NCBI GenBank assembly: GCA_024225875.1
Contig: JAAEMD010000004.1
Coordinates: 1 to 33,513, forward strand
Direction of reading: 5' to 3'
DNA: 33,513 bases
Source of the DNA: a bacterium
Lineage (GTDB): Bacteria > Margulisbacteria > Marinamargulisbacteria > JAAEMD01
Position numbers and translations under genes: made by a program. Below, piece by piece: positions 1,708-33,513 of the stretch. Below the pieces are notes generated by a model, which was not told where the DNA came from, did not search any database, and worked only from the letters and a program-made list of their open reading frames with translations. The number at the start of each line of letters is the position of its first letter. Within the stretch, counting starts at the first letter, position 1.

Positions 1708-1709
1708 CC

Positions 1710-4379: not shown

Positions 4380-4393
4380 CTATATTATAGATA

Positions 4394-6313: not shown

Positions 6314-6404
6314 AATATTTACTCCTGATTATTTTTATAATTTAATTTTAACTTAACTATATTTTATATATATATTAAACCAAAAATGTTTGATTTAATT
6401 AATA

Positions 6405-6971: not shown

Positions 6972-7015
6972 TAAAATCCTCCATAATTATTAACAGTATC
7001 AACTAATCAATTTTC

Positions 7016-8154: not shown

Positions 8155-8223
8155 TACAGCTGGTACAAATTGAAATGTCCGTTTAACTTTAAGTGTCGGA
8201 CATTTTACTTTGGAACAGCTATA
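8155..8223 (+). repeat. Palindromic MITE-like element, copy 1a (internally deleted)
   Basis: Both ~27-bp terminal inverted repeats present; central ~48 bp missing compared with full copies. Confidence 0.85.
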
Positions 8224-8337
8224 TAGCCGATCCGAAATGAAATGTCCGTTTAAATGACTGAGTGCTGTGTACTGACGTACATAAACGAAGTCATTTGAAA
8301 ACTTTAGTGTCGGACATTTTACTTTGGAACAGCTATA
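8222..8337 (+). repeat. Palindromic MITE-like element, copy 1b (full length, 116 bp)
   Basis: TATAGCCG...GTACTGACGTAC...GGAACAGCTATA; shares the TA at 8222-8223 with copy 1a. Confidence 0.9.
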
Positions 8338-8414
8338 GCTCAAAGATAACTGTTTCTTGAGATTACAAAACATGTTATCTTTATTGACTTTATTAAAGGA
8401 GGGAAAGGAGCAGG

Positions 8415-9377
8415 ATGTTAAATACTGGAGTTATCGGCCTTGGTAATATGGGGCGGCACCATGTTAGATTATACAGCGAAAATAAAAGAGTTAATTTAGT
8501 TTGCGTTTGCGATATTCATCAGGACATCTTAAATAAATTCACTTCTAATTATTCATGCCGGGGTTACTTAAACCTCGATGATATGTTAAATAATGAAGAA
8601 CTTGACGCAGTAACCATAACCTCACCAACCTCATTACACTACGAAATTGCTAAAAAAATCATCCAGAAAGGCATCCATGTTCTTATTGAAAAACCAGTTA
8701 CAGATACAACCGAAAGAGCTAACGAGTTAATAGATCTTGCAAAAAAACATAATGTGATAATTATGGTCGGTCATATAGAACGTTTTAACCCGGCTGTTAC
8801 AGCTCTTAAAAAACTAATCGATGAAGGTCAGGCAGGCAGGATCATTTCCCTTTCTTCCCGCAGGCTTGGAACCTTTCCTAATCAAATAAAAGATGCCAGT
8901 GTTATTATTGATCTGGCAGTACATGATATTGATATCTGTTCTTACTTACTGGATAAAGAACCTGTAAAAGTATATGCCCATAAAGTTAAGGCTCTTATTG
9001 ACAGTAGAGAAGACCATGCAGAACTTTTTCTTACTTATGACAATGAAAGCGCTTTTATTCAAGTTAACTGGATAACCCCCATAAAGATAAGGACCCTTGC
9101 AGTAACAGGAACCAGAGGCTATGTAGAGCTGGATTATCTAACAAAAAAATTAACTTTATATAAGAGTAATTACTCCAGAAGCAAAGATATAAACGGAGAA
9201 ACTGTTATAAATTTTAAAGATACTGAAAAAGTTGATATACCTGTTCAAAACATCGATCAGCTGACAGTAGAAATAGACCATTTTGTTACCTGTATCAAAG
9301 AAAACAGGCCGCCTCTAATAGACGGTGAAGCAGGAAAGAAAGCTCTGGAAACAGCACTTAATGTTCTTAATCAATAA
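8415..9377 (+). CDS. Gfo/Idh/MocA family oxidoreductase (possibly WbpB/WlbA-like UDP-sugar 3-dehydrogenase)
   Basis: GVIGLGNMG, HVLIEKP, VGHIERFNPA, DLAVHDID; SD upstream. Confidence 0.88.
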   Translation: MLNTGVIGLGNMGRHHVRLYSENKRVNLVCVCDIHQDILNKFTSNYSCRGYLNLDDMLNNEELDAVTITSPTSLHYEIAKKIIQKGIHVLIEKPVTDTTERANELIDLAKKHNVIIMVGHIERFNPAVTALKKLIDEGQAGRIISLSSRRLGTFPNQIKDASVIIDLAVHDIDICSYLLDKEPVKVYAHKVKALIDSREDHAELFLTYDNESAFIQVNWITPIKIRTLAVTGTRGYVELDYLTKKLTLYKSNYSRSKDINGETVINFKDTEKVDIPVQNIDQLTVEIDHFVTCIKENRPPLIDGEAGKKALETALNVLNQ

Positions 9378-9458
9378 AGAATGATTTAATTAATTTCCTT
9401 AACTGTATCAGGAAAAAATTCAGCACTTCAAAAAAAAGTGTTTAATAATAGAAGTTAC

Positions 9459-9574
9459 TATAGCTGGTACAAATTGAACTGTCCGTTTAAATGGGAAAGT
9501 GCAGTGTACTGGCGTACATTAAAGAAGTCATTTGAAAACTTTAGTGTCGGACATTTTACTGTGGAACAGCTATA
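9459..9574 (+). repeat. Palindromic MITE-like element, copy 2 (116 bp)
   Basis: TATAGCTGGTACAAATTGAACTGTCCG...CGGACATTTTACTGTGGAACAGCTATA. Confidence 0.9.
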
Positions 9575-9661
9575 AACTTCCAAAACAATAAATATAATGA
9601 TAAACTTCCATTAAAATATTTAATATATATAATTTAACTTAGATAGAAAGGTTTAACTAAA

Positions 9662-10819
9662 ATGACGTATTTATTTAGTTCTGAATCTGTCTCGGAAGGA
9701 CATCCGGATAAACTTTGTGATCAGATATCTGATGCAATTCTTGATGAAGCTTATAGACAGGATCCCCTGTCCCGTGTTGCAGCAGAATGCTTCACAACTA
9801 CAGGATTAGTCGTTATTGGAGGTGAAATAACAACCAGGGCTCAACTGGATATTCAAAATATTGTAAGAAATACAATAAAAGAAATCGGCTACACTAATCC
9901 TGACTATGGACTGGATGGAAACAGCTGTTCTGTTCTATCTGCAATTCATGACCAGTCACCAGATATTGCACAGGGAGTTAACAAAGGTGCCGGACTACAT
10001 AAGGAAATGGGCGCTGGAGATCAGGGTATGATGTTTGGCTATGCCTGCCGTCAAACACCTGCATTGATGCCACTGCCAATATATCTTTCACATAACCTGG
10101 TTAAGGAACTGGCTCGTATAAGAAAGGCAAAGGAGCTATCGTACTTAAGACCGGATTCGAAAGCACAGGTTACAATAGAGTATGAAAATAATTTACCAAA
10201 AAGAGCTCATACAGTAGTAATATCAACACAGCATGATCCTGACGTCAGTCTTGAAACTATTGAAAAGGATATGATCAGCAAATTAATTAAAAATGTAATC
10301 CCGTCACAGTATTTAGATGAAAAAACAAGATACTTTATTAATCCTACCGGCCGCTTCGTTATCGGAGGCCCTCATGGAGACACCGGACTGACCGGCAGAA
10401 AAATCATTGTTGATACTTATGGCGGTTGGGGCGCTCATGGCGGAGGAGCTTTTTCTGGCAAAGACTGCTCAAAGGTAGATCGTTCCGGAGCATATATGGC
10501 AAGATATATTGCTAAAAATATAGTTGCCGCAGAGATTGCTAAAGAAATTGAAATACAAATAGCTTATGCTATTGGCGTTGCTGAACCGGTTTCATTAACA
10601 GTAAAAACGTATGGTTCAGGAAAAGTATCAAATCTTGAAATTACTAAATTAATAAATGACCACTTTGATTTAACCCCGGAAGGCATAATTAAAACACTGG
10701 ACTTAAGACGTCCAATATACAAAAAAACAGCTGCTTACGGGCATTTTGGTCGTGATGATTTAGATGTTAGCTGGGAAAAAACGGATAAAGCTGAAGAATT
10801 AAAAAAAGCTGTAAGTTAA
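9662..10819 (+). CDS. metK: S-adenosylmethionine synthetase
   Basis: [34 protein letters not shown]. Confidence 0.99.
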
Positions 10820-11004
10820 TAAGTTTTTATGCATGTTTATGACAATATTTATAGAATATGAAATACAGTATTATGACTATGATTTTTTACCTTTAATTAG
10901 TTAGACATAACTAAATTTATTGTTTATTTACATAAAAAGTGCAGAGGCAATAGCTTTATATTAACTTTTTTTATCATGCTTCCCGTTTTTGGATAAAAAA
11001 TAAA

Positions 11005-11532
11005 ATGGAAAATATTTTGTTTCAGAATGAACTTGATGATGCAACTCTCAAGTTTAACAGTAAACTTGATTTTGATGTGGCTAGATTATTAAAAACATCG
11101 AAACTAACGCTTTCTGTAGCAGAAACTGTTACAGGAGGAATGCTGGCACAAAGACTAACCAGCTTACCAGGCAGTTTAGTCTATTTTAAAGGTGGTGTTA
11201 TTTGTATAGACACTTTATCGAAAATAAATATTTGCGGGGCAAGCCCTGCCACACTTAGAAAAAAAGGTGAATACAGTAAAGAGTTAACACTAGAACTGGC
11301 AAATGGTGTAAAAAATATAATGAAAACAGATATTTCAATAGCAATTACAGGCCATACAAGTCGTTTTGCTGATAAAAAAGATGAGGTCTTCGGAAAAATT
11401 AATGCAGGCTTCATGTTTAAGAATGATAAAAAGATAAAAGTTTTTAAATTTAATGGAACAAGAAATATAATAAGATATCAGTCAACACTAGCTGCTTTAG
11501 GTTATTTACGCCAGTGGCTTTTAGCACATTAA
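11005..11532 (+). CDS. CinA C-terminal / PncC (NMN deamidase)-like protein, degenerate motifs
   Basis: LSVAETVTGG, PGSLVYFKGG, AITG, F.GTRNIIR; located directly upstream of recA. Confidence 0.8.
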   Translation: MENILFQNELDDATLKFNSKLDFDVARLLKTSKLTLSVAETVTGGMLAQRLTSLPGSLVYFKGGVICIDTLSKINICGASPATLRKKGEYSKELTLELANGVKNIMKTDISIAITGHTSRFADKKDEVFGKINAGFMFKNDKKIKVFKFNGTRNIIRYQSTLAALGYLRQWLLAH

Positions 11533-11584
11533 CTAAATTAAAAATGCTCTTTACCTTATTTACAAGTTATTAAAGGAGGATAAA

Positions 11585-12601
11585 ATGGACGAAAATAAAA
11601 CAAAAGCTCTTGACTTTGCTATAACACAAATTGAAAAAGCACACGGAAAAGGTTCTATTATGTGGTTAGGAAACTCACCAAAACAAACGTGTAGCGTAGT
11701 TTCTTCTGGTGCACTATCACTGGATCTGGCTCTTGGAGTCGGCGGCTACCCTACCGGCAGGATTGTTGAAATATTTGGACCGGAAGCTTCCGGAAAAACA
11801 ACACTATCTCTTCACGCTGTTGCTGAAACACAAAAAAATGGCGGTGTGTGTGCCTATATTGATACTGAGCACGCTTTAAATGCAGTTTATGCTGAAAAAC
11901 TGGGAATTAATTTACAAACCCTGCTTTTATCTCAGCCTGACTATGGTGAACAAGCACTTGAAATTGCTGAAACTTTAGTAAGATCAGGAGCTATAGATCT
12001 AATTGTTATAGATTCTGTTGCTGCGCTGGTACCCAAGTCAGAAATAGAAGGTGAAATGGGAGACCCTACAATGGGTACCCAGGCCAGACTAATGTCACAG
12101 GCTTTAAGAAAACTCACAGCTATTGTAAATAAATCCAATACCACAATTATTTTTGTTAACCAGATAAGAGAAAAACTCGGTGTAATGTTCGGAAATCCTG
12201 AAGTTACTCCCGGAGGACGAGCCTTAAAGTTCTATTCTTCTATCCGCATTGATATCCGAAAAATCGAATCAATAAAAACCGGTGTTGATATAACCGGTCA
12301 CAAAGTAAGAGTAAAAATTGTTAAAAACAAAGTAGCTCCACCATTTAAGTATACAGAGCTTGAAATTGAATTTGGCAAAGGAATATCAGGTGTTGGAGAT
12401 CTCCTGGACCTGGGTGTCAATATGGGCTTTATAGAAAAAAGCGGCACCTGGTTTTCTGTTGGAAAAGAAAGAATGGGCCAGGGAAGAGAAGCCGGAAAAA
12501 AGTTTTTGCGGGAAAATGAAGAAATCGCTAATGATATCAGAAATAAAATAAAGGCAAAAACAGGCCTTGTTCCAACTGCCGGAAAAAAAGAGGAGGAATA
12601 A
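11585..12601 (+). CDS. recA: Recombinase RecA
   Basis: [45 protein letters not shown]. Confidence 0.99.
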
Positions 12602-12604
12602 AAA

Positions 12605-14143
12605 GTGAGTTTATTAATCGCACTGTCCAGTGCAGGAATAATACTTATAACAGGGGTTTTTGTTTTCTTTATAATAAGAAAAAAATCTGCTGATATTAAA
12701 ATAGAAAATGCTGAAAAAAAAGCTCAGCACACTCTGGAAGATGCTGCTATCAAGGCACAGTCAATCCTCGCAAAAGCAAATACTGAAGGGCAGGATGTAA
12801 TAACAAAAGCGCGTCTTGGAGTTGAAGAAGAGGTTAAGGCCAGAAGACAGGCCATTGCTCAAGTCGAAAATAGAGTACTGCAAAAAGAAAAATATATTGA
12901 TACCAGAGAAACTCACCTGAGTGAAAAAGAATCCATGCTGGAAAAAGATCTTGAAAAGGTAAAAAACCTTAAGAAAAAACAGGAAGCTATTATTCAGGAT
13001 CTTTCCGATACTCTGGAAAAAGCTGCGGGCTATTCAAAAGAAGAGGCAAAAAAAATACTTCTTACTAATGTTGAAAGAGAAGTACGTCAGAGAGCTGGTC
13101 TTATGATAAAGCAAATTGAGGACCAGGCCAGAATAATAGCTAATAGAAAAGCCAGAGAAATTATAACTGATGCTATACAAAGAACAGCTATTGATCATAT
13201 TTCCGAAATCACAACTTCGGTAGTACAGCTGCCTGATGATGATATGAAAGGAAGGATCATTGGACGAGAAGGTAGAAATATCCGTGTATTTGAAGCTGTT
13301 ACAGGGGTAGATGTTATAATAGACGATACACCTGGAGCAGTTGTACTTTCATCATTTGATCCCATAAGAAGAGAAATTGCAAAATTAACGCTGTCTAAAC
13401 TTATTTCTGACGGACGTATCCATCCTACCAGAATAGAAGAGCTTGTTGAGATTTCCAGAAAAAATCTTAAAGAGTTCATTATAGAAAAAGGTGAGCAGGC
13501 TGCTGATCAGCTGGGGCTGCAGTTCTCTCCAAAAATCATTGAACTGTTAGGCAAGCTGCATTTCAGAACAAGTTACGGTCAGAATATTCTGACCCACTCT
13601 ATTGAATGTGCGCATACAGCAGCTATTATGGCTCAAGAATTACAGGTTAATGCTCACCTGGCAAAAAGAGGTGCCCTGTTACATGATATAGGTAAAGCTC
13701 TTGATTTTGAGCAGGATGGCACACATGTACAACTGGGTAAAGAAGTCTGCGAAAAAGCTAATGAATCTGAAGAAGTTCTAAACTGTATTGAAGCTCATCA
13801 TGAAGACGTTGCACCAGAAACAGTTGAAGCTATACTGGTAATGGTAGCAGACAGAATATCTTCTGTCAGACCAGGGGCCAGACGCGAGTCACTTGAAACA
13901 TATATTAAAAGACTTGAAAAACTGGAAACTGTTGCAAATTCTTTTGAAGGTATAGATAAGGCATACGCTATCCAGGCAGGACGTGAAATAAGGGTTGTTG
14001 TCAAACCGGATGAAGTTGATGATCCCGCTGCTTATAAATTAGCTTTAGATATTGCTAAGAAAATAGAGTCAGATGTTGATTATCCAGGAGAAGTTAAAGT
14101 ATCTATTATCCGTGAAACAAGAGCAGTCGGAGTTGCAAAATAA
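12605..14143 (+). CDS. rny: Ribonuclease Y
   Basis: N-terminal TM, coiled coil, KH (KGRIIGREGRNIR), HD (LLHDIGK), RPGARRE. Confidence 0.97.
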   Translation: MSLLIALSSAGIILITGVFVFFIIRKKSADIKIENAEKKAQHTLEDAAIKAQSILAKANTEGQDVITKARLGVEEEVKARRQAIAQVENRVLQKEKYIDTRETHLSEKESMLEKDLEKVKNLKKKQEAIIQDLSDTLEKAAGYSKEEAKKILLTNVEREVRQRAGLMIKQIEDQARIIANRKAREIITDAIQRTAIDHISEITTSVVQLPDDDMKGRIIGREGRNIRVFEAVTGVDVIIDDTPGAVVLSSFDPIRREIAKLTLSKLISDGRIHPTRIEELVEISRKNLKEFIIEKGEQAADQLGLQFSPKIIELLGKLHFRTSYGQNILTHSIECAHTAAIMAQELQVNAHLAKRGALLHDIGKALDFEQDGTHVQLGKEVCEKANESEEVLNCIEAHHEDVAPETVEAILVMVADRISSVRPGARRESLETYIKRLEKLETVANSFEGIDKAYAIQAGREIRVVVKPDEVDDPAAYKLALDIAKKIESDVDYPGEVKVSIIRETRAVGVAK

Positions 14144-14187
14144 TGATGATACAGTAACCATATATTTTTTGTAGATATCTATTTAAT

Positions 14188-14979
14188 ATGAAACTTATTA
14201 ATATACTTTGTCTTGGTGATGTTGTTGGAAAGCCAGGTAGAGAATGTCTTGAGAATAATTTAAAAAACATTCAAGATAAGCACAATATAGATTTTACGGT
14301 ATGCAATATTGAAAACGCTGCTGGTGGATTTGGTTTCACAAGAAACACTTATATTGATTTAAAAAACATAAATATCAACGCTTTTACTTCAGGTAACCAT
14401 GTATATCAGCAAAAATCTGTTCTACAGGACTTCAGCTACTTTAAGAGCCTGGTCAGACCTCTAAATTTTCCGAGTGATAATCCGGGGGCCGGATACAGGA
14501 TTTTTAATCTTAACACTATAAAAATCGGGGTTGTTAATCTTATTGGAAGGGTATTTCTTGGTGAATATGACTGTCCATTCCATTGCATCAAAAATCATAT
14601 TCACCAGATTAAAAAAGAAACCCCGATCATTTTAGTAGACTTCCATGCTGAAGCTACATCTGAAAAAGAAGCCATGGGCTGGTTCCTTGATGGAGAGGTT
14701 TCTCTTATATACGGAACACATACCCATGTAATGACAGCTGATGAGAGAATCCTGCATAAATCAACGGCTTATATTACTGACATCGGTATGACTGGAGCAA
14801 GAAACAGTATTCTGGGCATGAAAAAAGAGCCGGTTATAAAAAAATTTCTTACACAAATGCCCAGCCGGTTTGAAATACCAAAGGATGATGAATGTATTTT
14901 TAACGGTATCAAATGTGTTATTGAAACAGAAACAGGAAAAGCTGTTTGCATTGAAAGGATCTTTGAAGTTTTTAATTAG
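14188..14979 (+). CDS. ymdB: YmdB/TIGR00282 metallophosphoesterase
   Basis: GDVVGKPG, NIENAAGG, TSGNH, DFHAEATSEK, GTHTHV, TDIGMTG; follows rny. Confidence 0.93.
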   Translation: MKLINILCLGDVVGKPGRECLENNLKNIQDKHNIDFTVCNIENAAGGFGFTRNTYIDLKNININAFTSGNHVYQQKSVLQDFSYFKSLVRPLNFPSDNPGAGYRIFNLNTIKIGVVNLIGRVFLGEYDCPFHCIKNHIHQIKKETPIILVDFHAEATSEKEAMGWFLDGEVSLIYGTHTHVMTADERILHKSTAYITDIGMTGARNSILGMKKEPVIKKFLTQMPSRFEIPKDDECIFNGIKCVIETETGKAVCIERIFEVFN

Positions 14980-15015
14980 ATTTACTCTGTTATTTACAGC
15001 CTGTCTTCAAGTTTA

Positions 15016-15133
15016 TACAGCTGGTACAAATTGAACTGTCCGTTTAAATGGCTGAGTGCAGCTTCACAGACGTACATAAACGAAGTCATTTGAAAACTTT
15101 AAGTGTCGGACATTTTACTTTGGATCAGCTATA
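15016..15133 (+). repeat. Palindromic MITE-like element, copy 3 (118 bp)
   Basis: TACAGCTGGTACAAATTGAACTGTCCG...CGGACATTTTACTTTGGATCAGCTATA. Confidence 0.9.
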
Positions 15134-15235
15134 GTGTGCCCTTACTGTACTTATCCAGCAAGGCTGATATAGAGCAGGTAGTTAATTTTTAATTCTATAA
15201 AATAACAAATAATCTTGTTACAATAATTTTAACTT

Positions 15236-15532
15236 ATGAAAATATTAATAGATCTGAATATAATAAAAAAAGAAAAGCTGCCTGAACAAATAAACGTTAC
15301 GCTTCACCATGAAATCAGCAGCCCCTTAACCAGCATTATGATTGGATCTCAAGCCTTGAGCGAGTGGTTTGCAGATGGATCTGATGAAAAACATGTAATC
15401 AGCCATATAAAAGACTGCTCGAAACGTATTAAGGAAACAATGGGTTCTTCAGGTAATTTAAAAAACATTATTATTGATGAATATTTAGATGGAATAAAGA
15501 TGGTCAATTTATCAAAATCAAAAGGCCTCTGA
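15236..15532 (+). CDS. Small HisKA (DHp)-like domain protein without ATPase or sensor domain
   Basis: H-box-like VTLHHEISSPLTSI; 98 aa; in-frame stop (15230-15232) just upstream of the ATG. Confidence 0.6.
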   Translation: MKILIDLNIIKKEKLPEQINVTLHHEISSPLTSIMIGSQALSEWFADGSDEKHVISHIKDCSKRIKETMGSSGNLKNIIIDEYLDGIKMVNLSKSKGL

Positions 15533-15561
15533 CAATGTCTAAATAAGACAGGCACCATATT

Positions 15562-16281
15562 ATGATAAAAGCAAAAAATTTAGTTAAAATATATCATGGA
15601 CGAAAAGTAGTAGATGATGTAAATCTCACAATGAGCCGGGGAGAAATCGTAGGGTTACTCGGGCCAAACGGAGCCGGTAAAACAACTACTTTTTATATGA
15701 TTATAGGGCTTATCAAACCTGCGGCTGGAGAAGTGTTTTTCGATGATATCAACATAACCAGAATACCTATGTTTAAAAGAGCAAGACTGGGGCTGGGTTA
15801 TCTTCCACAAGAATCATCTATATTTAAAAAACTGACAGTTGAAGAGAATGTTTTAGCCTTATGGGAGATAGTCAAAAACATTCCGCCAGAAAAATATGAA
15901 GAAAAACTTGTTGAACTGTTAAAAGAAATGGGGTTATTACACTTAAGAAAATCCAGGGGCATTGAACTTTCAGGAGGAGAAAAAAGGAGGGTTGAGATTG
16001 TTAGAGCACTTGCTACAAATCCATCTTTTATACTGCTTGATGAACCTTTCGCAGGAATTGATCCTATAGCTGTAAACGAAATTCAGGAAATAATAAAATC
16101 TCTAAAAAAGAAAGGCCTTGGCATTATTATAACTGATCATAATGTACGTGAAACACTATCAATAACTGATAGAGCCTACCTGATCCATCAGGGCAAATTA
16201 ATTTTATCCGGCAATTCCAAAGAAATTGCGTCCAGTAAAGTAGCAAAAGAGTTTTATCTTGGTGATAACTTCAAACTTTAG
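15562..16281 (+). CDS. lptB: LPS export ABC transporter ATP-binding protein
   Basis: GPNGAGKTTTFYMI, GYLPQESSIF, LSGGEKRRVEI, LLDEPFAGIDP, ITDHNVRETL. Confidence 0.96.
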   Translation: MIKAKNLVKIYHGRKVVDDVNLTMSRGEIVGLLGPNGAGKTTTFYMIIGLIKPAAGEVFFDDINITRIPMFKRARLGLGYLPQESSIFKKLTVEENVLALWEIVKNIPPEKYEEKLVELLKEMGLLHLRKSRGIELSGGEKRRVEIVRALATNPSFILLDEPFAGIDPIAVNEIQEIIKSLKKKGLGIIITDHNVRETLSITDRAYLIHQGKLILSGNSKEIASSKVAKEFYLGDNFKL

Positions 16282-17380: not shown

Positions 17381-17407
17381 TTTAACAGTCTTAATAGTTA
17401 TTAGCCA

Positions 17408-17436
17408 TTATCAGCAGGGAGTTTTATTGATATAAT
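17408..17436 (+). promoter_or_regulatory. Putative extended -10 promoter for the pyrophosphatase gene
   Basis: TTATCA-N17-TATAAT with TGn extension (TGATATAAT); AAGGAG SD downstream. Confidence 0.45.
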
Positions 17437-17478
17437 ATCCCGGTTTATACTTTTATTTTTTTAAAAGGAGAATTTTTT

Positions 17479-19782: not shown

Positions 19783-19842
19783 TTTAATTATAAAAATACA
19801 AATAATTACTTTTTTAAAAAACACATACTATAATTATCAGTT

Positions 19843-21793: not shown

Positions 21794-21803
21794 GGAGCAA
21801 TAA

Positions 21804-23108: not shown

Positions 23109-23158
23109 AAACAGAACTTTTCTGTTTTGAACAAAGATTTTTATAAGGAGTAAGTGTT

Positions 23159-23956
23159 ATGGAAAAGGTATCAACAGGTATTTTTGGCGGAAGCGGTTTT
23201 TATAAATTCGGAGAAAATATTAGTGAAGTTAAAATAGATACTCCCTATGGTATTACCAGCAGCTCTATATTTATAGCCTCAGTTGAAGGGAAAAGAGTAG
23301 CCTTTCTACCCCGACATGGAGTTGACCATATATATCCTCCTCATAAAATTAACTATAGAGCTAATTTATGGGCAATGAAAGAACTTGGAGTAAAACAGTT
23401 ATTCGGCCCATGTGCTGCAGGATCACTCCAGACACAAATAAAGCCCGGTGAACTGGTATTTTGCGATCAATTTATCGACAGAACTAATGGCCGGAAAGAT
23501 ACTTTCTATGATGGACCGGTAACTACACATATATCCTGTGCAGAACCTTATTGCCCTGAACTACGGACAATTGCCCGGAAATCAGCTGAAGATCTAAAAA
23601 TACCATTCCATAAAACAGGAACTGTTGTTGTAATTAATGGACCAAGATTCTCTTCAAAAGCCGAGTCAAAGTGGTTCTCTGAAAGCGGGTTTGACATCAT
23701 AAATATGTCACAGTACCCTGAAGTTGTTTTAGCAAGAGAACTGGAAATATGCTATATGAATATTTCATTAATAACTGATTATGACTGTGGCCTGGAGCAT
23801 GAGGCTGCACCAACTGATGTTAAAAGTATTATCGAAGTATTTGAACGTAACCTGTCAAACTTAAAATTATTATTATTCAGTATTATCAAAAATCTTCCAC
23901 CTGATCTGCCATGTTCTTGTAAAGAAACTCTAAAAGCATCAAGGTTCAATGATTAA
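23159..23956 (+). CDS. mtnP: 5'-methylthioadenosine phosphorylase
   Basis: GIFGGSG, FLPRHG..H..PPHKINYRAN, GPRFSSKAES, ITDYDC; clustered with mtnA. Confidence 0.9.
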   Translation: MEKVSTGIFGGSGFYKFGENISEVKIDTPYGITSSSIFIASVEGKRVAFLPRHGVDHIYPPHKINYRANLWAMKELGVKQLFGPCAAGSLQTQIKPGELVFCDQFIDRTNGRKDTFYDGPVTTHISCAEPYCPELRTIARKSAEDLKIPFHKTGTVVVINGPRFSSKAESKWFSESGFDIINMSQYPEVVLARELEICYMNISLITDYDCGLEHEAAPTDVKSIIEVFERNLSNLKLLLFSIIKNLPPDLPCSCKETLKASRFND

Positions 23957-24530
23957 TTTCCTGATAAAAAGAAATATTCATCAACAAATAAAACAGGTCG
24001 GTAGAAAATGCTTTCTTGCAGGCCTTAATAATTCACACAGCGGTAATATAAGTATCAAAAAAAATAATTATATTTATATAACCAGAACAGGCAGCAGTCT
24101 GGATCAGCTAAAAATAAGTGATATCATAAGAACAGAGCTCAATGTAAATAAAGTGGCTGATAGATATGCTTCTATTGAGCTCATTGTTCATCGTGCAATA
24201 TATAAGGCTAACCCGGATATCAACTCTATAACACATGCCCATGCCCCGTATGCTATTGCTATGGCAGATAAAGGCCGGGATTTAATCCCGTATGATGATG
24301 AAGGGAAGTATTATTTAGGCAGTATTCCTGTACTTAGTATTGAAAATACGATAGCATCAAAAAATATAGCTGATCAAATAAGAAGCTATGTTCATAATTC
24401 ACACAGTATTATAATTGCAAAACATGGAGTTTTTGCCTGGGGGCCATCTCTTGATGATGCTTATAAATTTTTGTCAGTAACTGAATCGGCCTGTAAAATA
24501 AACTATCTTACTATAGCTGGTACAAATTGA
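23949..24530 (+). CDS. Class II aldolase/adducin family protein (Ald2/FucA/MtnB-like)
   Basis: SGNIS, ASIELIVH, THAH, KHGV Zn-binding motifs; the last 5 residues and the stop come from repeat copy 4. Confidence 0.88.
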   Translation: MINFLIKRNIHQQIKQVGRKCFLAGLNNSHSGNISIKKNNYIYITRTGSSLDQLKISDIIRTELNVNKVADRYASIELIVHRAIYKANPDINSITHAHAPYAIAMADKGRDLIPYDDEGKYYLGSIPVLSIENTIASKNIADQIRSYVHNSHSIIIAKHGVFAWGPSLDDAYKFLSVTESACKINYLTIAGTN

Positions 24531-24615
24531 AATGTCTGAGTGCTGTGTACTGGCGTACATTAACGAAGTCATTTGAAAACGTCAGTGTCGGACATTTTAC
24601 TTTGGATCAGCTATA
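24512..24615 (+). repeat. Palindromic MITE-like element, copy 4 (104 bp, 12-bp internal deletion)
   Basis: TATAGCTGGTACAAATTGAAATGTCTGAG...CGGACATTTTACTTTGGATCAGCTATA. Confidence 0.9.
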
Positions 24616-24725
24616 CGTCACTTAAATTGTAAAAACAGCCCTGATAAAATGAGAGCAAACGCATTTTACATTATCGTATTTTCCTGTATTCTTAAAGAAG
24701 TTCCTTAAAATAAAAGGGGGTTACT

Positions 24726-25760
24726 ATGCTGCCAAAAACTATTGAGATTAAGAACGACCGGGTTTTCCTGATTGACCAGACTAAAATTCCTTATAAACTA
24801 ACAACAGTTGAAATAAAAGATATTGAAGAAATGTTCAGTGCGATCAAAAATATGATAGTCCGGGGCGCCCCGGCAATTGGCGTAGCTGCTGCTGCCGGCA
24901 TCGCACTTTACATAAAAAATCATAACTCTAACCAGCTGACCTTAAACAATATTGTTAATGCCGGCCAAAAACTTAAAAATGCCAGACCAACCGCAGTAAA
25001 TTTAAGCTGGGGCATAGATAATACTGTTAAATTCGCAGGTCAATTTACAGATATTAAACTTCTACAAAAAGAAATATGGACTTTTGTAAAAAAACTCGCT
25101 GATGAAGATATCACTACAAACAGATCCATAGGTAAAAATGGCGCTGAAATAATCAAAAAGAAAGATAAAATCAATGTACTTACACACTGCAATGCAGGTT
25201 CTCTGGCAACAGTTTACTGGGGCACTGCACTTGGCGTTATAAGGGAGTTAGCCTCTGAAAATAGAATCAACATGGTATATGCTGATGAAACCCGTCCTCG
25301 ACTTCAGGGTGGTAAAATAACAGCCTTCGAACTACAAAAGGATAATATACCGGTAACAGTACTAACAGACAGCATGGCTGCACACTTTATGAAAAAGGGG
25401 GTTATAGATATAGTGATTACTGGTGCTGACAGAATAGCTTTAAACGGGGATACTGCCAATAAAATAGGTACCTATAGTCTAGCGATTTGTGCTGATTATC
25501 ATAATATTCCGTTTTATGTAGCAGCGCCTGTATCAACTATTGATTTTAATGCCAGTACCGGCAATGATATACCTGTTGAAGAAAGGGGTCCAGAAGAAGT
25601 AACTCATATCAACAGTATAAATATCATAGCTGACAATGTAAAAGTGCTAAATCCTGCTTTTGATATAACACCTGCCAGACTTATCAAAGCAATAATTACT
25701 GAAAAAAAAGCAATTTCCGGAGATCTGGAAAAAGAAATTTTATTACTGAAAAAAATCTAA
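24726..25760 (+). CDS. mtnA: Methylthioribose-1-phosphate isomerase
   Basis: VRGAPAIG, ARPTAVNL, THCNAGSLA, ETRP, GADRI..NGDTANKIGTY, NPAFDITP. Confidence 0.95.
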   Translation: MLPKTIEIKNDRVFLIDQTKIPYKLTTVEIKDIEEMFSAIKNMIVRGAPAIGVAAAAGIALYIKNHNSNQLTLNNIVNAGQKLKNARPTAVNLSWGIDNTVKFAGQFTDIKLLQKEIWTFVKKLADEDITTNRSIGKNGAEIIKKKDKINVLTHCNAGSLATVYWGTALGVIRELASENRINMVYADETRPRLQGGKITAFELQKDNIPVTVLTDSMAAHFMKKGVIDIVITGADRIALNGDTANKIGTYSLAICADYHNIPFYVAAPVSTIDFNASTGNDIPVEERGPEEVTHINSINIIADNVKVLNPAFDITPARLIKAIITEKKAISGDLEKEILLLKKI

Positions 25761-25782
25761 CCAGTTTATATAAAATAAATAG

Positions 25783-26400
25783 TTACCTTTTAACCATTTT
25801 TAATACTGTTCTAAATAATATTTTCATATCTGTCCAGAAGCCTGCTTCATCTATATATTTTTTATACAAAGCAATTTTCTCTGGCAAAACCTCTTCCAGA
25901 TAACCTTTTTCTTTATCCTCAAATTTTGAAAGTACTCTTTCTTCTTCAATATAATCGATAGCAGCATAATCAGTAATACCTGGTCGAACTTTTAATATAT
26001 CCTGATAATCCTTCCTGTGTTTTACAATATATTTTTCCAGTTCAGGGCGGGGACCTACCAAAGAAATATCTCCAAGTAATACATTTACTAACTGCGGCAG
26101 CTCATCAAGTTTTGTACGCCTCAACCACCTGCCAGCACTGGTTATACGAGGGTCACACTGACTGGTAACACCAGGACCTTTTTTATCTGCATCATAGTAC
26201 ATGGATCTAAATTTATAAAATGTAAACAGCTTAAAATCGCGGCCTACTCTTTCCTGACGAAAAAACACCGGCCCTCTGGAAGTACACTTTATCAAAACTG
26301 CAACAAAAAACAATACCGGGCTTAAAATAAATAGTCCGGTTAATGCCAGAGCAAAGTCCATAATTCTTTTTATATAGTTTACATAAAAGCCTGATTTCAT
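25783..26400 (-). CDS. Small bacterial sugar transferase (undecaprenyl-P phosphoglycosyl transferase)
   Basis: KRIMD, FRQERVG, KFRSM, DPRIT, LDELPQL.NVL.GD.SLVGPRPE, PGITD. Confidence 0.93.
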   Translation of the reverse strand: MKSGFYVNYIKRIMDFALALTGLFILSPVLFFVAVLIKCTSRGPVFFRQERVGRDFKLFTFYKFRSMYYDADKKGPGVTSQCDPRITSAGRWLRRTKLDELPQLVNVLLGDISLVGPRPELEKYIVKHRKDYQDILKVRPGITDYAAIDYIEEERVLSKFEDKEKGYLEEVLPEKIALYKKYIDEAGFWTDMKILFRTVLKMVKR

Positions 26401-26407
26401 TGCATCT

Positions 26408-27526
26408 TTATCTGGCGTATTTAATGACTGTATCTATAATATAATCTATCTGTACATCTGTTAAATCAGGGTAAACAGGTAAAGATAGATACTGTTCAAA
26501 GCAGGCATTGGCTACAGAATATTTGCTATCGATAAACTTATACTTTTCTTTATAATATGGATGTTTATGAACAGGTATAAAATGTACTGAAGTAGATATC
26601 CCTTTTTCCTTCAGTTTCTTTATAAGCTCATTTCTATTTTGAACCCTGATAACATATAAGTGCCAGGCTGACTCCCTGTCTGCCGGTACAAAAGGAGTCT
26701 TTATAACTGTATCCTTAAAAGCGGCTGTATACTTTCCCGCAATCTCCGCTCTTTTATCTCTCATCCACTCCAGTTTTTCTAACTGGATAAGACCTAAAGC
26801 AGAACAAATATCAGTTAAATTATATTTATAACCATTATCTACTACTTCATAATACCAGTCACCTGATTCTGAGTAACGGTCCCATGCATCCCTGCTTATA
26901 CCATGTAACCGGTTAATCTTAATCTTCCTGGCATACTGTTCATTATCAGTAGTAGCCATACCTCCCTCTCCTGTAGCAAGTGTTTTGGTAGCATAAAAAG
27001 AAAAACAGGTAATATCACCTAAAGTTCCTATGTTCTTCCCTTTATATGTTGCAGGTACCGCATGAGCAGCATCTTCTATAACAAATAAATCATTCTTTTT
27101 TGCAATAGCCAGTATTTCGTCCATATCGCAGGCTGTTCCAGCAAAATGGACCGGTATTATAGCTTTTGTTCTATCAGTAATTAACTCATTAATTTTCTTG
27201 ACATCAATATTCAGCATCTTATCATCAATATCACATAAAACAGGAACCGCATCAAAATAAGTTACAACCTCAGCTGTAGCAATAAATGTATTAGTTGGCA
27301 GAATAACCTCATCTCCAGGCTTAATACCAACCGCTTTTAGTGCTAAATGTAAAGCTGCTGTTGCAGAATTAAGCGAAACTGCATGTCTGGCACCAGTAAA
27401 ATTTCTAAATCTCTTTTCAAACTCTACAGTTTTAGGCCCCATAGTAAGCCACCCTGACTTTAAGGTATCTACTACTGACTCTATTTCATTATCTCCTATA
27501 CAAGCTTTATGGAATGGTATTTTCAC
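26408..27526 (-). CDS. DegT/DnrJ/EryC1/StrS PLP-dependent sugar aminotransferase
   Basis: SGWLTMGPK, NSATAALHLAL, EDAAHA, FSFYATKTLATGEGG. Confidence 0.94.
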   Translation of the reverse strand: MKIPFHKACIGDNEIESVVDTLKSGWLTMGPKTVEFEKRFRNFTGARHAVSLNSATAALHLALKAVGIKPGDEVILPTNTFIATAEVVTYFDAVPVLCDIDDKMLNIDVKKINELITDRTKAIIPVHFAGTACDMDEILAIAKKNDLFVIEDAAHAVPATYKGKNIGTLGDITCFSFYATKTLATGEGGMATTDNEQYARKIKINRLHGISRDAWDRYSESGDWYYEVVDNGYKYNLTDICSALGLIQLEKLEWMRDKRAEIAGKYTAAFKDTVIKTPFVPADRESAWHLYVIRVQNRNELIKKLKEKGISTSVHFIPVHKHPYYKEKYKFIDSKYSVANACFEQYLSLPVYPDLTDVQIDYIIDTVIKYAR

Positions 27527-27543
27527 AGCAAAACCTCTCTATA

Positions 27544-28077
27544 TTAGTTATCAAGCACCACAAAATAATCAGTTTCCAGTGTATTAATATCACACAGCCC
27601 GATATCCAGAATAATACCGATTGCAACATAAGAAGCCATCGTTTTTAATAATGAAATTGCTGCTTTAGCTGTACCGCCAGTCGCAAAAACATCATCAATA
27701 AGTAAAACACGTGACTCTTTTAGTGAGCTGTTTACCTGCATTTCCAGGCAGTCAGTACCATACTCCAGACTATATTTAATTGATTTAACTTCACCTGGAA
27801 GCTTCCCCTTTTTACGTAGCGGGATAAAACCGCATTTAAGCTTTTGTGCTAAAGCTGATCCCAGGATAAAACCTCTGGCTTCAATACCTATAATATAATC
27901 TATACTCCTGAAACGACTGGACAAAGATGCCATATACTCAATAAGTATAGAAAAAGATTTATGGTTCTGATAAACAGGGTTTAAATCTTTAAACAGGATA
28001 CCTTTTTCAGGAAAATCCTGGTAAAACGTAACATTATTAGATAATATCTGCTTTACATCCTCTCTAGCCTGCTTCAT
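27544..28077 (-). CDS. apt: Adenine phosphoribosyltransferase
   Basis: DFPEKGILFKD, IEARGF, RKKGKLP, YSLEYG, VLLIDDVFATGGT. Confidence 0.93.
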   Translation of the reverse strand: MKQAREDVKQILSNNVTFYQDFPEKGILFKDLNPVYQNHKSFSILIEYMASLSSRFRSIDYIIGIEARGFILGSALAQKLKCGFIPLRKKGKLPGEVKSIKYSLEYGTDCLEMQVNSSLKESRVLLIDDVFATGGTAKAAISLLKTMASYVAIGIILDIGLCDINTLETDYFVVLDN

Positions 28078-28139
28078 AACAAACCTCCTGCTTGATAATT
28101 TTTCTTCTTAAAAAAAATTCATGACTGCACTTCTTATTT

Positions 28140-29126
28140 TTAATAAACTTTTTTCCAGTATTCTTTCAAAAAATCCAGTTTCTGTTCTACCCATTTAATG
28201 TTTTCAACATACCATGATACTGTTTTACTTATACCTTCTTCAAATTTAACCTGAGCTGACCAGCCGACCTCCTTATTAATCTTTCCGGTATTCAATGAGT
28301 ATCTGAAATCATGGCCCAGTCTATCTTTGACAAATTCTATTAAACTTTCTGGTCTATCAAGTATATTTAGTATAGCTTTAACAACATCAATATTTCTCTT
28401 CTCCTGCCCGCTGCCTGTATTATATATTTCACCTTTATTACCTTTTTCGATCAAAGCATATACAGCTTGAGCACAATCGGAAACATACAGCCACTCTCTA
28501 ACATTCAAGCCCTGGCCATAAACAGGTATTTTCTCATTATTCAGTGCTTTTAAAATAACAACTGGAATCAGTTTTTCAGGATACTGCCAGGCACCATAAT
28601 TATTTGACGGCCTGACTGTAATAACAGGTAACCCATAAGTATGATAATAAGCTCTTCCCATCATATCTGCCGATGCTTTACTAACCGAATAAGGAGAGTT
28701 CGGATCAAGTGGTGTATTTTCATAAAACTGGCCTTCTTCTCCAAGTTCGCCATACACCTCATCTGTAGAAATATTAATAAATTTCTCCAGCCCGGTCTTT
28801 CTGGCTGCATCAAGCACAACCTGAGTACCCCTTACATTTGTATCAATAAATGGTGAGGCATCCAGAATACTTCTATCCACATGACTTTCTGCCGCCCAGT
28901 GAACAACTGTATCCGGTTTTTCTTCCTCAAAAATCTTCTCCATGGAGTTTTTATCAGCAATATCTGCCTTAAAAAATCTTATTCTGTTTTTAACATCCTT
29001 TATTCTTTCCAGATCACCTGCATAAGCAAGATTATCAATAACACAAAGGTCTAAACCTTTATCTACTCCCTGCCTGATAAACTCACTACCTATAAAGCCA
29101 GCTCCACCGGTAACTAATATTTTCAA
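28140..29126 (-). CDS. rfbB: dTDP-glucose 4,6-dehydratase
   Basis: TGGAGFIG, AAESHVDRSI, STDEVYG, PYSVSK, SNNYG, PEKLIP, DRLGHDFRY. Confidence 0.96.
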   Translation of the reverse strand: MKILVTGGAGFIGSEFIRQGVDKGLDLCVIDNLAYAGDLERIKDVKNRIRFFKADIADKNSMEKIFEEEKPDTVVHWAAESHVDRSILDASPFIDTNVRGTQVVLDAARKTGLEKFINISTDEVYGELGEEGQFYENTPLDPNSPYSVSKASADMMGRAYYHTYGLPVITVRPSNNYGAWQYPEKLIPVVILKALNNEKIPVYGQGLNVREWLYVSDCAQAVYALIEKGNKGEIYNTGSGQEKRNIDVVKAILNILDRPESLIEFVKDRLGHDFRYSLNTGKINKEVGWSAQVKFEEGISKTVSWYVENIKWVEQKLDFLKEYWKKVY

Positions 29127-29141
29127 TTGCTCACTCCTTTT

Positions 29142-30008
29142 TTACTCTTTAATTATATCCATTAAATACTGACCATAACCTGTTTTTATCAGAGGACGGG
29201 CTAATTCAGTTAATTGTTTTTTATCGATATAACCCTCTCTGTAGGCTATTTCTTCGATACAGGCTATTTTTAAGCCCTGCCTTTCCTCTACAATTTTCAC
29301 AAAATTAGCTGCGTCTAAAAGAGCATTATGGGTACCAGTGTCTAACCAGGCATATCCCCGGCCCATAAGTTTTACATTCAACTCTCCCCTTTTTAAATAT
29401 ACATTATTAACAGATGTAATTTCCAATTCTCCTCTGGCTGATGGCTTTATTGATCTGGCAATTTTCGAAGCATCCTTATCATAATAATAGAGACCTGTAA
29501 CAGCATAGTTAGACCTGGGTATCCCGGGCTTTTCTTCAATAGAAACAGCCTTACCATCACTATCAAACTCAACAACTCCATAGCTTTCTGGATCAGCTAC
29601 ATAATAGCCAAAAACTGCAGCGCCTGACTTTTGTCTGGCTGTTTCTTTTAATAATTCCGTCAAATTCTGGCCAAAATATATATTATCTCCCAAAACAAGC
29701 CAGACACTATCACCATCAATAAACTCTTCACCAATAATTAAAGCGTCCGCTATACCTTTAGGAGAATCCTGAACTGCATATGAGAAGCTAAGTCCTAAAT
29801 GTTTTCCGTCTCCAAAAAGATCCTGATATCGTCCCAGATCTTTTGGTGTTGATATAATTAATATCTCGTTTACTCCTGCTAACATTAAAGTTGATAGCGG
29901 GTAATAAATCATCGGCTTATCATAGACTGGCAATAACTGCTTTAGTGTCGGTATCGTTATCGGATACAAACGGGTACCACTGCCGCCAGCAAGAATTATC
30001 CCTTTCAT
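29142..30008 (-). CDS. rfbA: Glucose-1-phosphate thymidylyltransferase
   Basis: [43 protein letters not shown]. Confidence 0.97.
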
Positions 30009-30052
30009 TATTTAAACAACTCCTTTTTCATCTTAAATATAATCCGTTTACT

Positions 30053-31201
30053 TTACTCTATTAAACCCATATTAGATTCTAAGAATTTTAATACATTTTC
30101 CGGATTTTTAATATCTGTTGGAATATTTACAACTTTGTCAGCCAGTTCAACAGCAATGGGATACCTGTCTGTTTCAAAATACCATTTATCAAAACCTGAT
30201 TCTACAGGATGAAGAGGTGAAATAAACCAGTCACCAAGCCTTATTTTAGATTTTTCTGCCAGAGCAAAAAACTTCTTTCTATCATTAACCAGAATCGGAT
30301 ATTTCAAAAAAGAATGGTTTTTAAAATGTTCTTTTTTAATATGTACTTTCCCGTTACGCATCAAAAATTCATTATAATGCCTGGCATTATTCTTTCTTAA
30401 TTCCATCACATATGGCAGTTCTTTCAAATTCTTCAAGCCTTCTCTGGCCTGAGCAGTGCTAAAACCTCTAAAAAAGTTATCCGGAATATCTGTTGAGGTT
30501 ATTTCTATACCTTGAGAAGAACCAATAATAAGATTATGCCTGCTTAAGAATCTATAAAGTCTTAACAGAAGCCAGTAAGAACTATCACATAAAAAATACC
30601 TTCTGACAAAATATAAAACCCTTAAAACCAGCTCTGCTTTAAAACCGGGCTCTGATTTCTGATTATACAAGCTGCTCATTTTATCAAAAATTGTCTGATT
30701 ATTAATTAACGCAAACCCACCTAATCCAGTTGAAAAAGGTTTGTTCCACTGTGTTGAAAAAAAAGCAGCATCACAATAACTTCCATTGGGCTTACCCTTA
30801 TATGTTCCGCCAAAACCATGACAACAATCTTCAATTGTCAATAATTTACAGGCTTTTGCTATTGCGGCTATCTCTTCCAGGTTTGATGATAATCCATAGG
30901 TATTCTGACAAATTACAGCTTTTGTTTTCTCAGTTATTGCTTCTGCTAATTTTGAAACATCCATATTATATGTCTGTCTGTCTACATCTACATAAACAGG
31001 TTTAGCTCCCAGATAAATAATTTGATTAGGGACTACCACACAGGTATAAGCAGGCAGGATAACCTCATCACCAGAAGAAATGCCAGCGCTCTTTAATATC
31101 GAGTAGAGAGCGACCCTGCCCTTCCAGTAAAAAAACAGCTGCCTGCTGGCAGGCAAATATCTGGTTAACTGCTCATTAAAATTATCTAAATATTTTTTCA
31201 C
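30053..31201 (-). CDS. Divergent DegT/DnrJ-family PLP-dependent protein
   Basis: GDEVILPAYTCVVV, IEDCCH, FFSTQWNKPFSTGLGG (PLP Lys). Confidence 0.85.
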   Translation of the reverse strand: MKKYLDNFNEQLTRYLPASRQLFFYWKGRVALYSILKSAGISSGDEVILPAYTCVVVPNQIIYLGAKPVYVDVDRQTYNMDVSKLAEAITEKTKAVICQNTYGLSSNLEEIAAIAKACKLLTIEDCCHGFGGTYKGKPNGSYCDAAFFSTQWNKPFSTGLGGFALINNQTIFDKMSSLYNQKSEPGFKAELVLRVLYFVRRYFLCDSSYWLLLRLYRFLSRHNLIIGSSQGIEITSTDIPDNFFRGFSTAQAREGLKNLKELPYVMELRKNNARHYNEFLMRNGKVHIKKEHFKNHSFLKYPILVNDRKKFFALAEKSKIRLGDWFISPLHPVESGFDKWYFETDRYPIAVELADKVVNIPTDIKNPENVLKFLESNMGLIE

Positions 31202-31223
31202 TGAACTTTATATTAACTTAAAA

Positions 31224-32339
31224 CTAAATGAATAAAAATTGCTTTAAATGCTCTACAATTCTATGCGCGGCTTTACCATCCCAGTATTTGAGCTCCTGTT
31301 TTCTTTTATTATTACCGTTTATTATATTTTTATATGCCCTGTAAATATTTTCTGGATCAGTACCTGCTAAATAGTTTGTGCCATTAGTAACAGTTACTGG
31401 TCGCTCTGTATTATCACGAATTGTTATACATGGCACATCTAAATAACTGGTTTCTTCCTGTAAGCCGCCGCTATCTGTTAAAACCATACCTGCATTCATA
31501 GTCAGGCTTAACATTTCATTATAACCAAGCGGGTCAAGCAGATTTATAACCCCCTCTTCTATACTATTAGAAAATGATTTATATCTGAAACCAAACTCAG
31601 AAACTTTCTTCCTTGTTCTTGGGTGGATAGGAAATATAACTTTTGTATCCTGAGAAATTTTATCAATAACACCCCATATTCCAGAAAACACTTTCTCAAT
31701 ATCAACATTTGAAGGTCTATGAAGAGTCAAAAGCACATAATTTCCTTTTACCAGTCCAATATCTTTATAAAACCGGGCTACTTTTACTTCTTTAAGTTGA
31801 TTTTCCAGTGTATCAATCATTACATTACCAACAAACACTATCTTTTCTTTTACGGCACCTTCTTTTAACAGCTGTCTGTCAGCATCCTGTGATGGAGTAT
31901 ATAAAATATCAGCAACAGCATCTGTAACCAGCCGGTTGATTTCCTCCGGCATCCTGCGATCAAAACTTCTTAGACCCGCCTCAATATGTGCCACCGGAAC
32001 ATGTAGTTTTGCAGCAACTATACTACAGCCCATTGTTGAATTAACATCACCGGCCACAACTACCAGGTCCGGTCTTTCCTTAAGTACAACTTCTTCAAAC
32101 CTTTTCATTACTTCAGCTGTCTGCCAGGCATGTGATCCTGAGCCAACTCCCAGATTTATATCGGCCAGGGGTATGTTAAGCTGTTCGAAGAATGTATGAC
32201 TCATGTTCTTATCATAATGCTGTCCTGTATGGACAATAATCGACTCAAATAAATCAGGATACCTTTTCAATTCTCTTACAACCGGACCAATCTTCATAAA
32301 GTTAGGCCTGGCAGCTGCCACCAGAATTATTTTTTTCAT
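31224..32339 (-). CDS. wecB: Non-hydrolysing UDP-N-acetylglucosamine 2-epimerase
   Basis: ARPNFMK, HTGQHYD, GDVNST, HIEAGLRS, MPEEINR, TDSGGLQEE, NTERP. Confidence 0.93.
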   Translation of the reverse strand: MKKIILVAAARPNFMKIGPVVRELKRYPDLFESIIVHTGQHYDKNMSHTFFEQLNIPLADINLGVGSGSHAWQTAEVMKRFEEVVLKERPDLVVVAGDVNSTMGCSIVAAKLHVPVAHIEAGLRSFDRRMPEEINRLVTDAVADILYTPSQDADRQLLKEGAVKEKIVFVGNVMIDTLENQLKEVKVARFYKDIGLVKGNYVLLTLHRPSNVDIEKVFSGIWGVIDKISQDTKVIFPIHPRTRKKVSEFGFRYKSFSNSIEEGVINLLDPLGYNEMLSLTMNAGMVLTDSGGLQEETSYLDVPCITIRDNTERPVTVTNGTNYLAGTDPENIYRAYKNIINGNNKRKQELKYWDGKAAHRIVEHLKQFLFI

Positions 32340-32528
32340 TCTTCTCCTCTTTAATACTTAATTACAATAACAAAAGTATAGCTGTCAGACAAAAAACTTT
32401 ACCTTTTTTATTATCATAAAATATCATAATCACTGCCATCAGTTAAGAATACTTCAATATAAAGCCTTAAGATAAAAAACAATTTTAAACTGGCCCACAA
32501 TAGTGTTGATGGGCAATGAGGCTGAAAC

Positions 32529-32556
32529 TTCTAAGTTCTAAGTTCTAAGTTCGAAG
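32529..32556. repeat. Heptamer tandem repeat (TTCTAAG x3 + TTCGAAG)
   Basis: Read directly in the intergenic region upstream of wecB. Confidence 0.8.
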
Positions 32557-32649
32557 TTATTGCCAGATTACCAGCCATTTTTGCTTTTAAGCCAATATAT
32601 ACTGATAAATCGTAACTTTATGTACGTATTGTATGTTTATTTTAGAGCT

Positions 32650-32754
32650 GATAGCTGTTTCAAAGCAAAATATCCGACACTTAAAGTTCTCAAATAGCTT
32701 CGTTTATGTACGCCAGTACACTGTACTCAGACATTTTACTTTGGGACAGCTATA
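32650..32754 (-). repeat. Palindromic MITE-like element, copy 5 (105 bp, reverse orientation)
   Basis: Reverse complement TATAGCTGTCCCAAAGTAAAATGTCTGAGTACAGTGTACTGGCGTACATAAACGAAG...GTCGGATATTTTGCTTTGAAACAGCTATC. Confidence 0.88.
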
Positions 32755-32809
32755 TGAGTCTGTCCCCTGGTTGTTTAGATCTGATCATCTGAATTTTCTT
32801 CGTTCATAA

Positions 32810-33397: not shown

Positions 33398-33513
33398 TTT
33401 ACTTGATTTTGCGCTGATAATTTTATTACTCCGTACCTAAAGTAGTAGATAATAACTAGGCAGCGTAAGCAACTTCTTTTTTCTTAAAAAAGTTAGTAAT
33501 TTTGTTTGGAGAT

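Follow-up and report, generated by a model that had tools for sequence, protein, structure and literature searches.

Short palindromic repeats occur six times in a 33,513-nucleotide stretch of a Margulisbacteria genome (contig JAAEMD010000004.1 of assembly GCA_024225875.1, positions 1 to 33,513; this whole stretch is called the window below). In this study, we propose that these repeats belong to a large family of miniature inverted-repeat transposable elements (MITEs) that very probably depends on a transposase of the IS630 family and targets TA dinucleotides, similar to RUP and IS630-Spn1. The copy number, the boundaries of the unit, the 2-bp duplication upon insertion, the identity of ends with an IS630-type insertion sequence (IS), the family of the transposase and the restriction to the space between genes are direct observations. 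The mobilization of the MITE by this transposase in trans is the mechanism that we build on them.

A dispersed family with sharp boundaries

The window is contig C4 of an assembly (G000) that comprises 2.52 Mb in 590 contigs and is 89% complete. A profile hidden Markov model built from the six window copies was searched with nhmmer against this assembly and yielded 336 matches at E<=1e-3, with the best E-values reaching 1e-33, which were merged into 279 non-redundant places. An earlier reading of the window from its letters alone (the sequence-only reading) had expected an element that is very abundant genome-wide, and this is indeed the case: the repeats are a real, dispersed family, far beyond chance. 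Together the copies span 27.8 kb or 1.1% of the assembly. The whole model is covered by 191 of the 279 copies, 161 of which have a length of 115-117 bp (modal length 115-116 bp). Since 32 copies touch a contig end and 94 are located within 300 nt of one, the count of 279 is a lower bound, and the MITE helps to break the assembly, explaining much of its fragmentation.

The unit has sharp boundaries (TATAGCTG...CAGCTATA) and both ends read TATA rather than just TA. Across 174 full copies with flanks, the consecutive T, A, T and A of the left boundary are present in 172, 174, 166 and 174 copies, respectively, and the right boundary is its mirror image. The flanks look random, with the commonest base at any flank position found in at most 88 of the 174 copies. 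The unit consists of a 112-bp core (TAGCTG...CAGCTA) between two TA dinucleotides, resulting in a 116-bp repeat from TATA to TATA. It is bordered by terminal inverted repeats of 27 bp, of which 22 positions pair in the consensus (counted on the consensus strings). The copies are on average 92.7% identical to the 116-nt consensus and, compared pairwise, 89.0% identical, with values of at least 99% for only 13 of 15051 pairs.

Ends shared with an IS630-family insertion sequence

No transposase is present in the window itself, as the sequence-only reading had stated for a cognate one, and fragments of a cognate IS630-type IS are found on other contigs. The genome has 14 matches to DDE_3 (PF13358) and a single match to Y1_Tnp (PF01797). 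One group of transposase fragments ends with '...FCNKSSPEHKAL..GTKLHLL' (C159, C454, C54, C428, C536, C542, C170, C121, C19, and C248), followed some 15-45 nt downstream by an end that reads ...CCGGACATTT(T/C)ATTT(T/C)GG....GCTATA. The C-terminal DDE_3 fragments with such a downstream end include those on C454, C54, C428, C536, and C159. IS ends of type A are present on C454, C54, C138, and C553; those of type B are present on C428, C536, C382, and C476, with type B left ends on C93, C157, and C454.

In both types, 21-23 of 27 positions agree with the ends of the MITE (counted by hand on the strings), which substantiates the link to IS630/Tc1-mariner elements suggested by the sequence-only reading. 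The 26-nt type B end was found 14 times with at most two mismatches, seven times leading into the IS interior and seven times into the MITE interior. Seven MITE copies carry a left end that is identical over 26 nt to the type B IS; among them is the window copy at 8222-8337, which thus shares its left terminal repeat with IS copies on other contigs. In hybrid copies of the MITE, a type B left end is combined with a standard right end.

Full-length relatives of the transposase in the protein collection are 344 amino acids long and combine N-terminal helix-turn-helix domains with DDE_3. They match the NCBIfam model NF033545 ('IS630 family transposase') at 188.7 bits (P0002) and 192 bits, with a cut-off of 100. 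P0002 is 100% identical to the fragment on C454 over its last 31 amino acids. In addition, a complete IS copy is present in metagenome locus L021 (2001-3159), measuring 1159 bp from TATA to TATA and containing one open reading frame (ORF) of 344 amino acids. Judged by its sequence, the transposase with MITE-like ends is a member of the IS630 family. Two further IS630-type groups in the genome (with intact copies on C23, C203, and C487) have open frames of 302-347 amino acids, and the ends of these intact copies are unlike those of the MITE.

Further transposase-bearing contigs (C10, C550, C327, C554, and C241) contain various types and fragments, including a 319-amino acid frame on C550 that we presume to be an IS3-type integrase look-alike. 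The genome is repeat-rich for its 2.5-Mb size.

Duplication of a 2-bp target

To find empty sites, the 80-nt flanks of 165 copies were blasted against the genome itself. For three copies both flanks match a paralogous empty site, where they are 2 bases apart. The filled site at C221:3953-4069 corresponds to a single TA on C176, and the one at C256:26244-26360 to TA on C561 and TG on C159. For the filled site at C567:11446-11561 the empty sites on C315 and C242 have TT, and these paralogues have diverged. In all of these comparisons, 2 bases of the empty site take the place of the 116-bp unit, and a filled site therefore corresponds to TA, 112 bp and TA. Insertion of the element duplicates a 2-bp target, and the unoccupied site is TA in two of the three comparisons. 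The MITE-like, TA-targeting character that had been proposed from the window is thereby supported at the level of insertion sites.

Placement between genes and adjacent copies

The MITE is almost confined to the space between genes. Of the 214 copies scoring at least 60 bits, 189 are intergenic, 24 lie over the edge of an ORF and only one is found inside an ORF, whereas 81% of the TA dinucleotides are inside ORFs. Among the spacers, divergent ones have the highest density (1.32 per kb), followed by convergent (0.91) and same-strand ones (0.71).

Neighboring copies with a gap of at most 60 nt are organized head-to-tail in the same orientation in 17 out of 17 pairs (e.g., C53:9130-9357, C27:28754-28980, C412:2877-3104), and no inverted neighbors were observed. 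In 11 of the 17 pairs a palindromic junction CAGCTATAGCTG is present, where two 112-bp units abut with no additional TA; the pair in the window has one TA in common instead. For six full dimers, the identity is 95.1% within a pair versus 89.6-92.0% between pairs. Because of this higher identity within pairs, we attribute them to tandem duplication at the site itself, running across the terminal TATA, rather than to independent insertions or a mobile dimer.

A second repeat family was observed alongside the MITE. Its 22-nt core CTGGCCCACAATAGTGTTGATG occurs 97 times on 71 contigs when at most three mismatches are allowed, e.g., at 32474-32578 of the window and at C27:22030-22190, C289:1900-2020, C155:1998-2200, and C159:1195-1290. 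Variable heptamer arrays, (AGTTCTA)n, often adjoin the core; an array follows 16 of the cores, and there are 12 arrays with three or more perfect units. In some copies the first ~40 bp are those of the 116-bp MITE and the end is formed by a type A IS630 repeat and TA (C289), whereas others are chimeras with the right half of the MITE (C159). From its composition, this family looks like another non-autonomous element served by the same transposase.

Copies in the window and their surroundings

The six copies were recovered by a repeat search and MAFFT alignment precisely where the sequence-only reading had located them, and all of them are also matched by nhmmer; for the copy at 8222-8337, the terminal repeats were compared with those of the IS in addition. 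They are located between ORFs, with one exception described below. The first copy (8155-8223, plus strand) is a short version of 69 bp from which the central ~47 bp has been deleted, with both terminal repeats retained in the alignment; it matches positions 1-107 of the model with an E-value of 1.5e-12. It has one TA in common with the following full copy of 116 bp (8222-8337, plus strand), giving rise to the junction CAGCTATATAGC. The next full copy of 116 bp (9459-9574, plus strand) is intergenic, with a GFO/IDH/MocA oxidoreductase gene on one side and metK on the other. A fourth, full copy of 118 bp (15016-15133, plus strand) is preceded by a ymdB-like gene 37 nt upstream.

The remaining two copies have the same 12-nt internal deletion. 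The copy of 104 bp at 24512-24615 (plus strand) is the exception to the intergenic placement, since the ORF of a class II aldolase (23949-24530) runs 19 nt into it and obtains its last six codons (T-I-A-G-T-N) and its TGA stop from the MITE. The copy of 105 bp at 32650-32754 (minus strand) is the most diverged of the six.

The window also comprises a heat-shock cluster hrcA-grpE-dnaK (4394-8041, minus strand), in which we take one gene to be grpE from its position. The GC skew of the window follows the gene strand: it is negative at 1-8000 and 26000-33513, where the genes are on the minus strand, and positive for plus-strand genes.

Distribution beyond this genome

No copy of the MITE was detected among 40 relatives, among 54 further genomes of the class or among 145 further genomes of the phylum, with many of all these genomes being incomplete; in this comparison set the window genome is the only member of its family/genus. 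Relatives of the IS have a wider distribution. At E<=1e-20, seven other genomes of the phylum contain them. Further ones are present in a metagenome-assembled genome of the Desulfobacteraceae and, with 79% identity over residues 1-344, in a record of Candidatus Marinamargulisbacteria bacterium SCGC AAA071-K20.

A search of JGI metagenome contigs with one terminal-repeat pattern returned eight stretches, all of which are IS ends or an unrelated end, and no full MITE. The same type of search with one pattern gave zero matches in viral contigs, and BLAST of the 116-bp unit gave no match in plasmid records, in collections that may lack entries for the window genome itself. Four metagenome loci (L019, L023, L024, and L026) share an identical stretch ending in ...CGGACATTTCATTTTGGCAATGCTATA with similarity to an IS630-like end; the MITE interior is absent from it and there is no transposase nearby in the part examined. 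Based on this end similarity, the stretch may stem from another organism and represent a further element with ends of this family.

In the literature searched, no paper was found that links Margulisbacteria with miniature inverted-repeat elements or that contains the 26-nt end string. With no match in Rfam, in the literature or in the other genomes of the phylum, the suggestion of the sequence-only reading that the family is possibly undescribed still stands: the kind of element is ordinary, yet none seems to have been described before in this lineage.

Proposed mechanism and alternative explanations

Transposases of the IS630/Tc1-mariner type work by cut and paste, with insertion at TA and duplication of this dinucleotide. 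By analogy, the 27-bp terminal inverted repeats of the MITE would be the binding and cleavage sites of a 344-amino acid IS630-family DDE transposase, presumably encoded by the ~1.16-kb IS with near-identical ends elsewhere in the genome. Acting in trans, this transposase would excise the MITE and paste it into TA dinucleotides. Insertions in coding sequences would be removed by selection, leading to an accumulation of copies between genes, and head-to-tail pairs would be later tandem duplications of single copies in place, running across the terminal TATA.

Alternatively, the unit could mainly be a structured hairpin of RNA or DNA (e.g., a terminator, mRNA stabilizer or small RNA) that is under selection, its copies being kept for this function and not representing selfish transposon relics; we consider this very unlikely. 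All window copies do fold as a long rod well below shuffled controls. For the copy at 8222-8337 a single rod of -47 kcal/mol (z = -8.4) is predicted, which contains every stem recognized by the sequence-only reading (the imperfect terminal repeats, a second stem inside them and, in the center, the GTGTAC-N4-GTACAT hairpin), and z ranges from -3.0 to -6.6 for the other five. However, the covariation by which that reading had proposed to check the fold is absent over 41 predicted pairs in 174 copies, with 94.8% of the cells paired versus an expectation of 94.5% for independent columns. Where pairs vary, they break uncompensated (e.g., 37-69 is GG in 33 copies and 48-59 is TC in 23), and consensus folding of the 174 copies with alifold gave no structure. 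The rod thus reflects an origin from inverted repeats and not a selected RNA. Similarly, the six window copies are all co-oriented with their neighboring genes, but across the genome, in same-strand gene contexts, 34 copies share the orientation of the genes and 30 oppose it; the agreement in the window is due to chance. Rfam at gathering thresholds yields a tRNA only for the window, and at E-values up to 10 the best sub-threshold match is a generic hairpin model at 27.7 bits (threshold 67.5). Between 8000 and 9700, neither promoter-like sites (6 vs. 7.1 +/- 2.8 in shuffles) nor terminator-like sites (1 vs. 0.8 +/- 0.8) are in excess, and the single terminator-like site, at 9309-9325, is located outside the copies. 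An RNA function is unsupported given the lack of covariation, orientation bias and an Rfam match. The sole hint of strand-specific RNA pairing is the presence of four conserved G-T pairs in the consensus (18-99, 30-76, 46-61, and 36-70) and zero A-C pairs, so that RNA of the plus strand would pair better than RNA of the minus strand.

The palindromic rod would also suit a REP-like element moved on single-stranded hairpins by a HUH/Y1 transposase of the RAYT or IS200/IS605 type, and one Y1_Tnp gene is indeed present (C241, 140.5 bits). The probability of this explanation is nevertheless close to negligible. Y1 transposition is not known to make a target duplication, whereas a 2-bp duplication is present here, and the 27-bp inverted repeats match IS630 ends. 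In a blastn-short comparison, C241 and the element share no similarity. Of the two kinds of transposase for which the sequence-only reading envisaged matching ends, those ends are thus found with IS630-type fragments, and the Y1 contig is unrelated to the element. We also consider it exceedingly unlikely that a different, unseen transposase, or recombination and duplication alone, has spread the unit and that the IS630-type end match was acquired secondarily. Both the unrelated interiors of MITE and IS and the hybrid copies would be in line with such an origin, and the head-to-tail pairs clearly originate from local duplication. Yet, when a TA duplication is combined with 27-bp ends that an IS630-type IS in this genome also carries, this is the hallmark of movement by IS630. 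The remaining IS630-type transposases (C23, C203, and C487) show no end similarity, and local duplication alone cannot give 279 dispersed copies with unique flanks.

Several observations weigh against dependence on the IS630-family transposase, which is nonetheless the explanation we prefer. The similarity between MITE and IS is limited to the ~27-bp ends, and the MITE interior is unrelated to the sub-terminal sequence of the IS, indicating that the MITE is not a simple deletion derivative. The assembly holds IS fragments only: the longest, on C248, is a 5'-truncated remnant of 162 amino acids, and further contigs end within the IS. Contig walking from the type B left end of the IS (C93, C454) found no overlapping contig in the assembly. 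An intact cognate transposase gene is absent from the assembly and a working source in the organism is thus hypothetical; the record of P0002 has a blank source field. All empty sites are paralogous places of the same genome rather than alleles of another strain, and they concern only three of 165 copies. The intergenic placement was scored against ORFs from a crude longest-ORF heuristic (at least 90 amino acids, covering 83% of the assembly) and not from a gene finder. Finally, the moderate divergence among copies implies that the main burst may be old.

Significance and comparison with known systems

This work adds a well-documented pair of a MITE and its parent IS for a deep, uncultured lineage. 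The known workings of such elements are unchanged by it, and a specialist will not be surprised. The identical ends on IS and MITE offer a clean case for testing trans-mobilization by the IS630 family. For annotation, the ORF of the aldolase ending at 24530 is a warning that gene ends can be derived from a MITE. One may also speculate that a single IS630-type transposase family services a small network composed of the 116-bp MITE, hybrids with swapped ends and a second, longer element with a variable (TTAGAAC)n array. We regard this as unlikely; the system would be more than selfish DNA if, in addition, the G-T-biased rod acts as an RNA or the heptamer array is a contingency switch near genes.

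The family displays the features of a MITE: it is small without a transposase gene, it has terminal inverted repeats and a target duplication, and it occurs in many dispersed copies with unrelated flanks. This corresponds to the description of bacterial MITEs in the sections of PMC2229807 on which we draw (less than 200 bp, terminal inverted repeats, TA at the termini, target duplications). Given the host, membership in the sequence families RUP, Correia or ERIC seems unlikely. Membership in the REP/RAYT group was rejected in view of the 2-bp target duplication and the single Y1_Tnp contig (C241), which lacks similarity to the MITE.

Rickettsia palindromic elements (RPE) are alike in size and palindromic fold. 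According to PMC2229807, in Table 1 and the text used here, they carry open reading frames and a 12-bp terminal repeat, and their target duplication is unknown, whereas in the present family a 2-bp target duplication is seen and, of 214 copies, only one is inside a crude ORF and 24 lie over edges. The frequent in-frame insertion within genes that characterizes RPE was not observed, and the resemblance to RPE cores suggested by the sequence-only reading is unsupported.

Correia/NEMIS of Neisseria, as described in the same sections of PMC2229807, is closer: both families have TA termini, a target duplication, a terminal repeat of ~24-27 bp, long and short variants differing by an internal segment, and a high copy number in a genome of ~2 Mb. 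Those sections give no cognate IS for Correia, whereas one has been identified here. An IHF site or a promoter function was not found for the present family, with no test aimed at them. This IS has the organization of the IS630 family, with a length of ~1.16 kb, a single 344-amino acid ORF, DDE_3, terminal repeats of ~27 bp and flanking TA; the MITE, in contrast, is non-autonomous and without an ORF.

The system most similar to the present one is RUP/IS630-Spn1 of Streptococcus pneumoniae, for which PMC2229807, in the sections consulted, reports 107 bp and 108 copies, with movement by IS630-Spn1 proposed from end similarity and TA targets; the same sections state that, among bacterial repeat elements, a match between terminal repeat and IS had been found for RUP only. 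By description, both families have units of ~107-116 bp that are non-coding, intergenic and inserted at TA, and their copy numbers are in the hundreds (108 for RUP, 279 here). They differ in host lineage and in their inverted repeats, which measure 27 bp here (22 of them pairing in the consensus) versus nine contiguous pairs for RUP in Table 1 of PMC2229807. In both cases the ends resemble those of an IS630-family IS in the same genome, from which mobilization in trans would follow by repeat similarity. Here, the TA target is duplicated on insertion as well, and the resemblance extends in seven copies to an end that is identical to the IS end.

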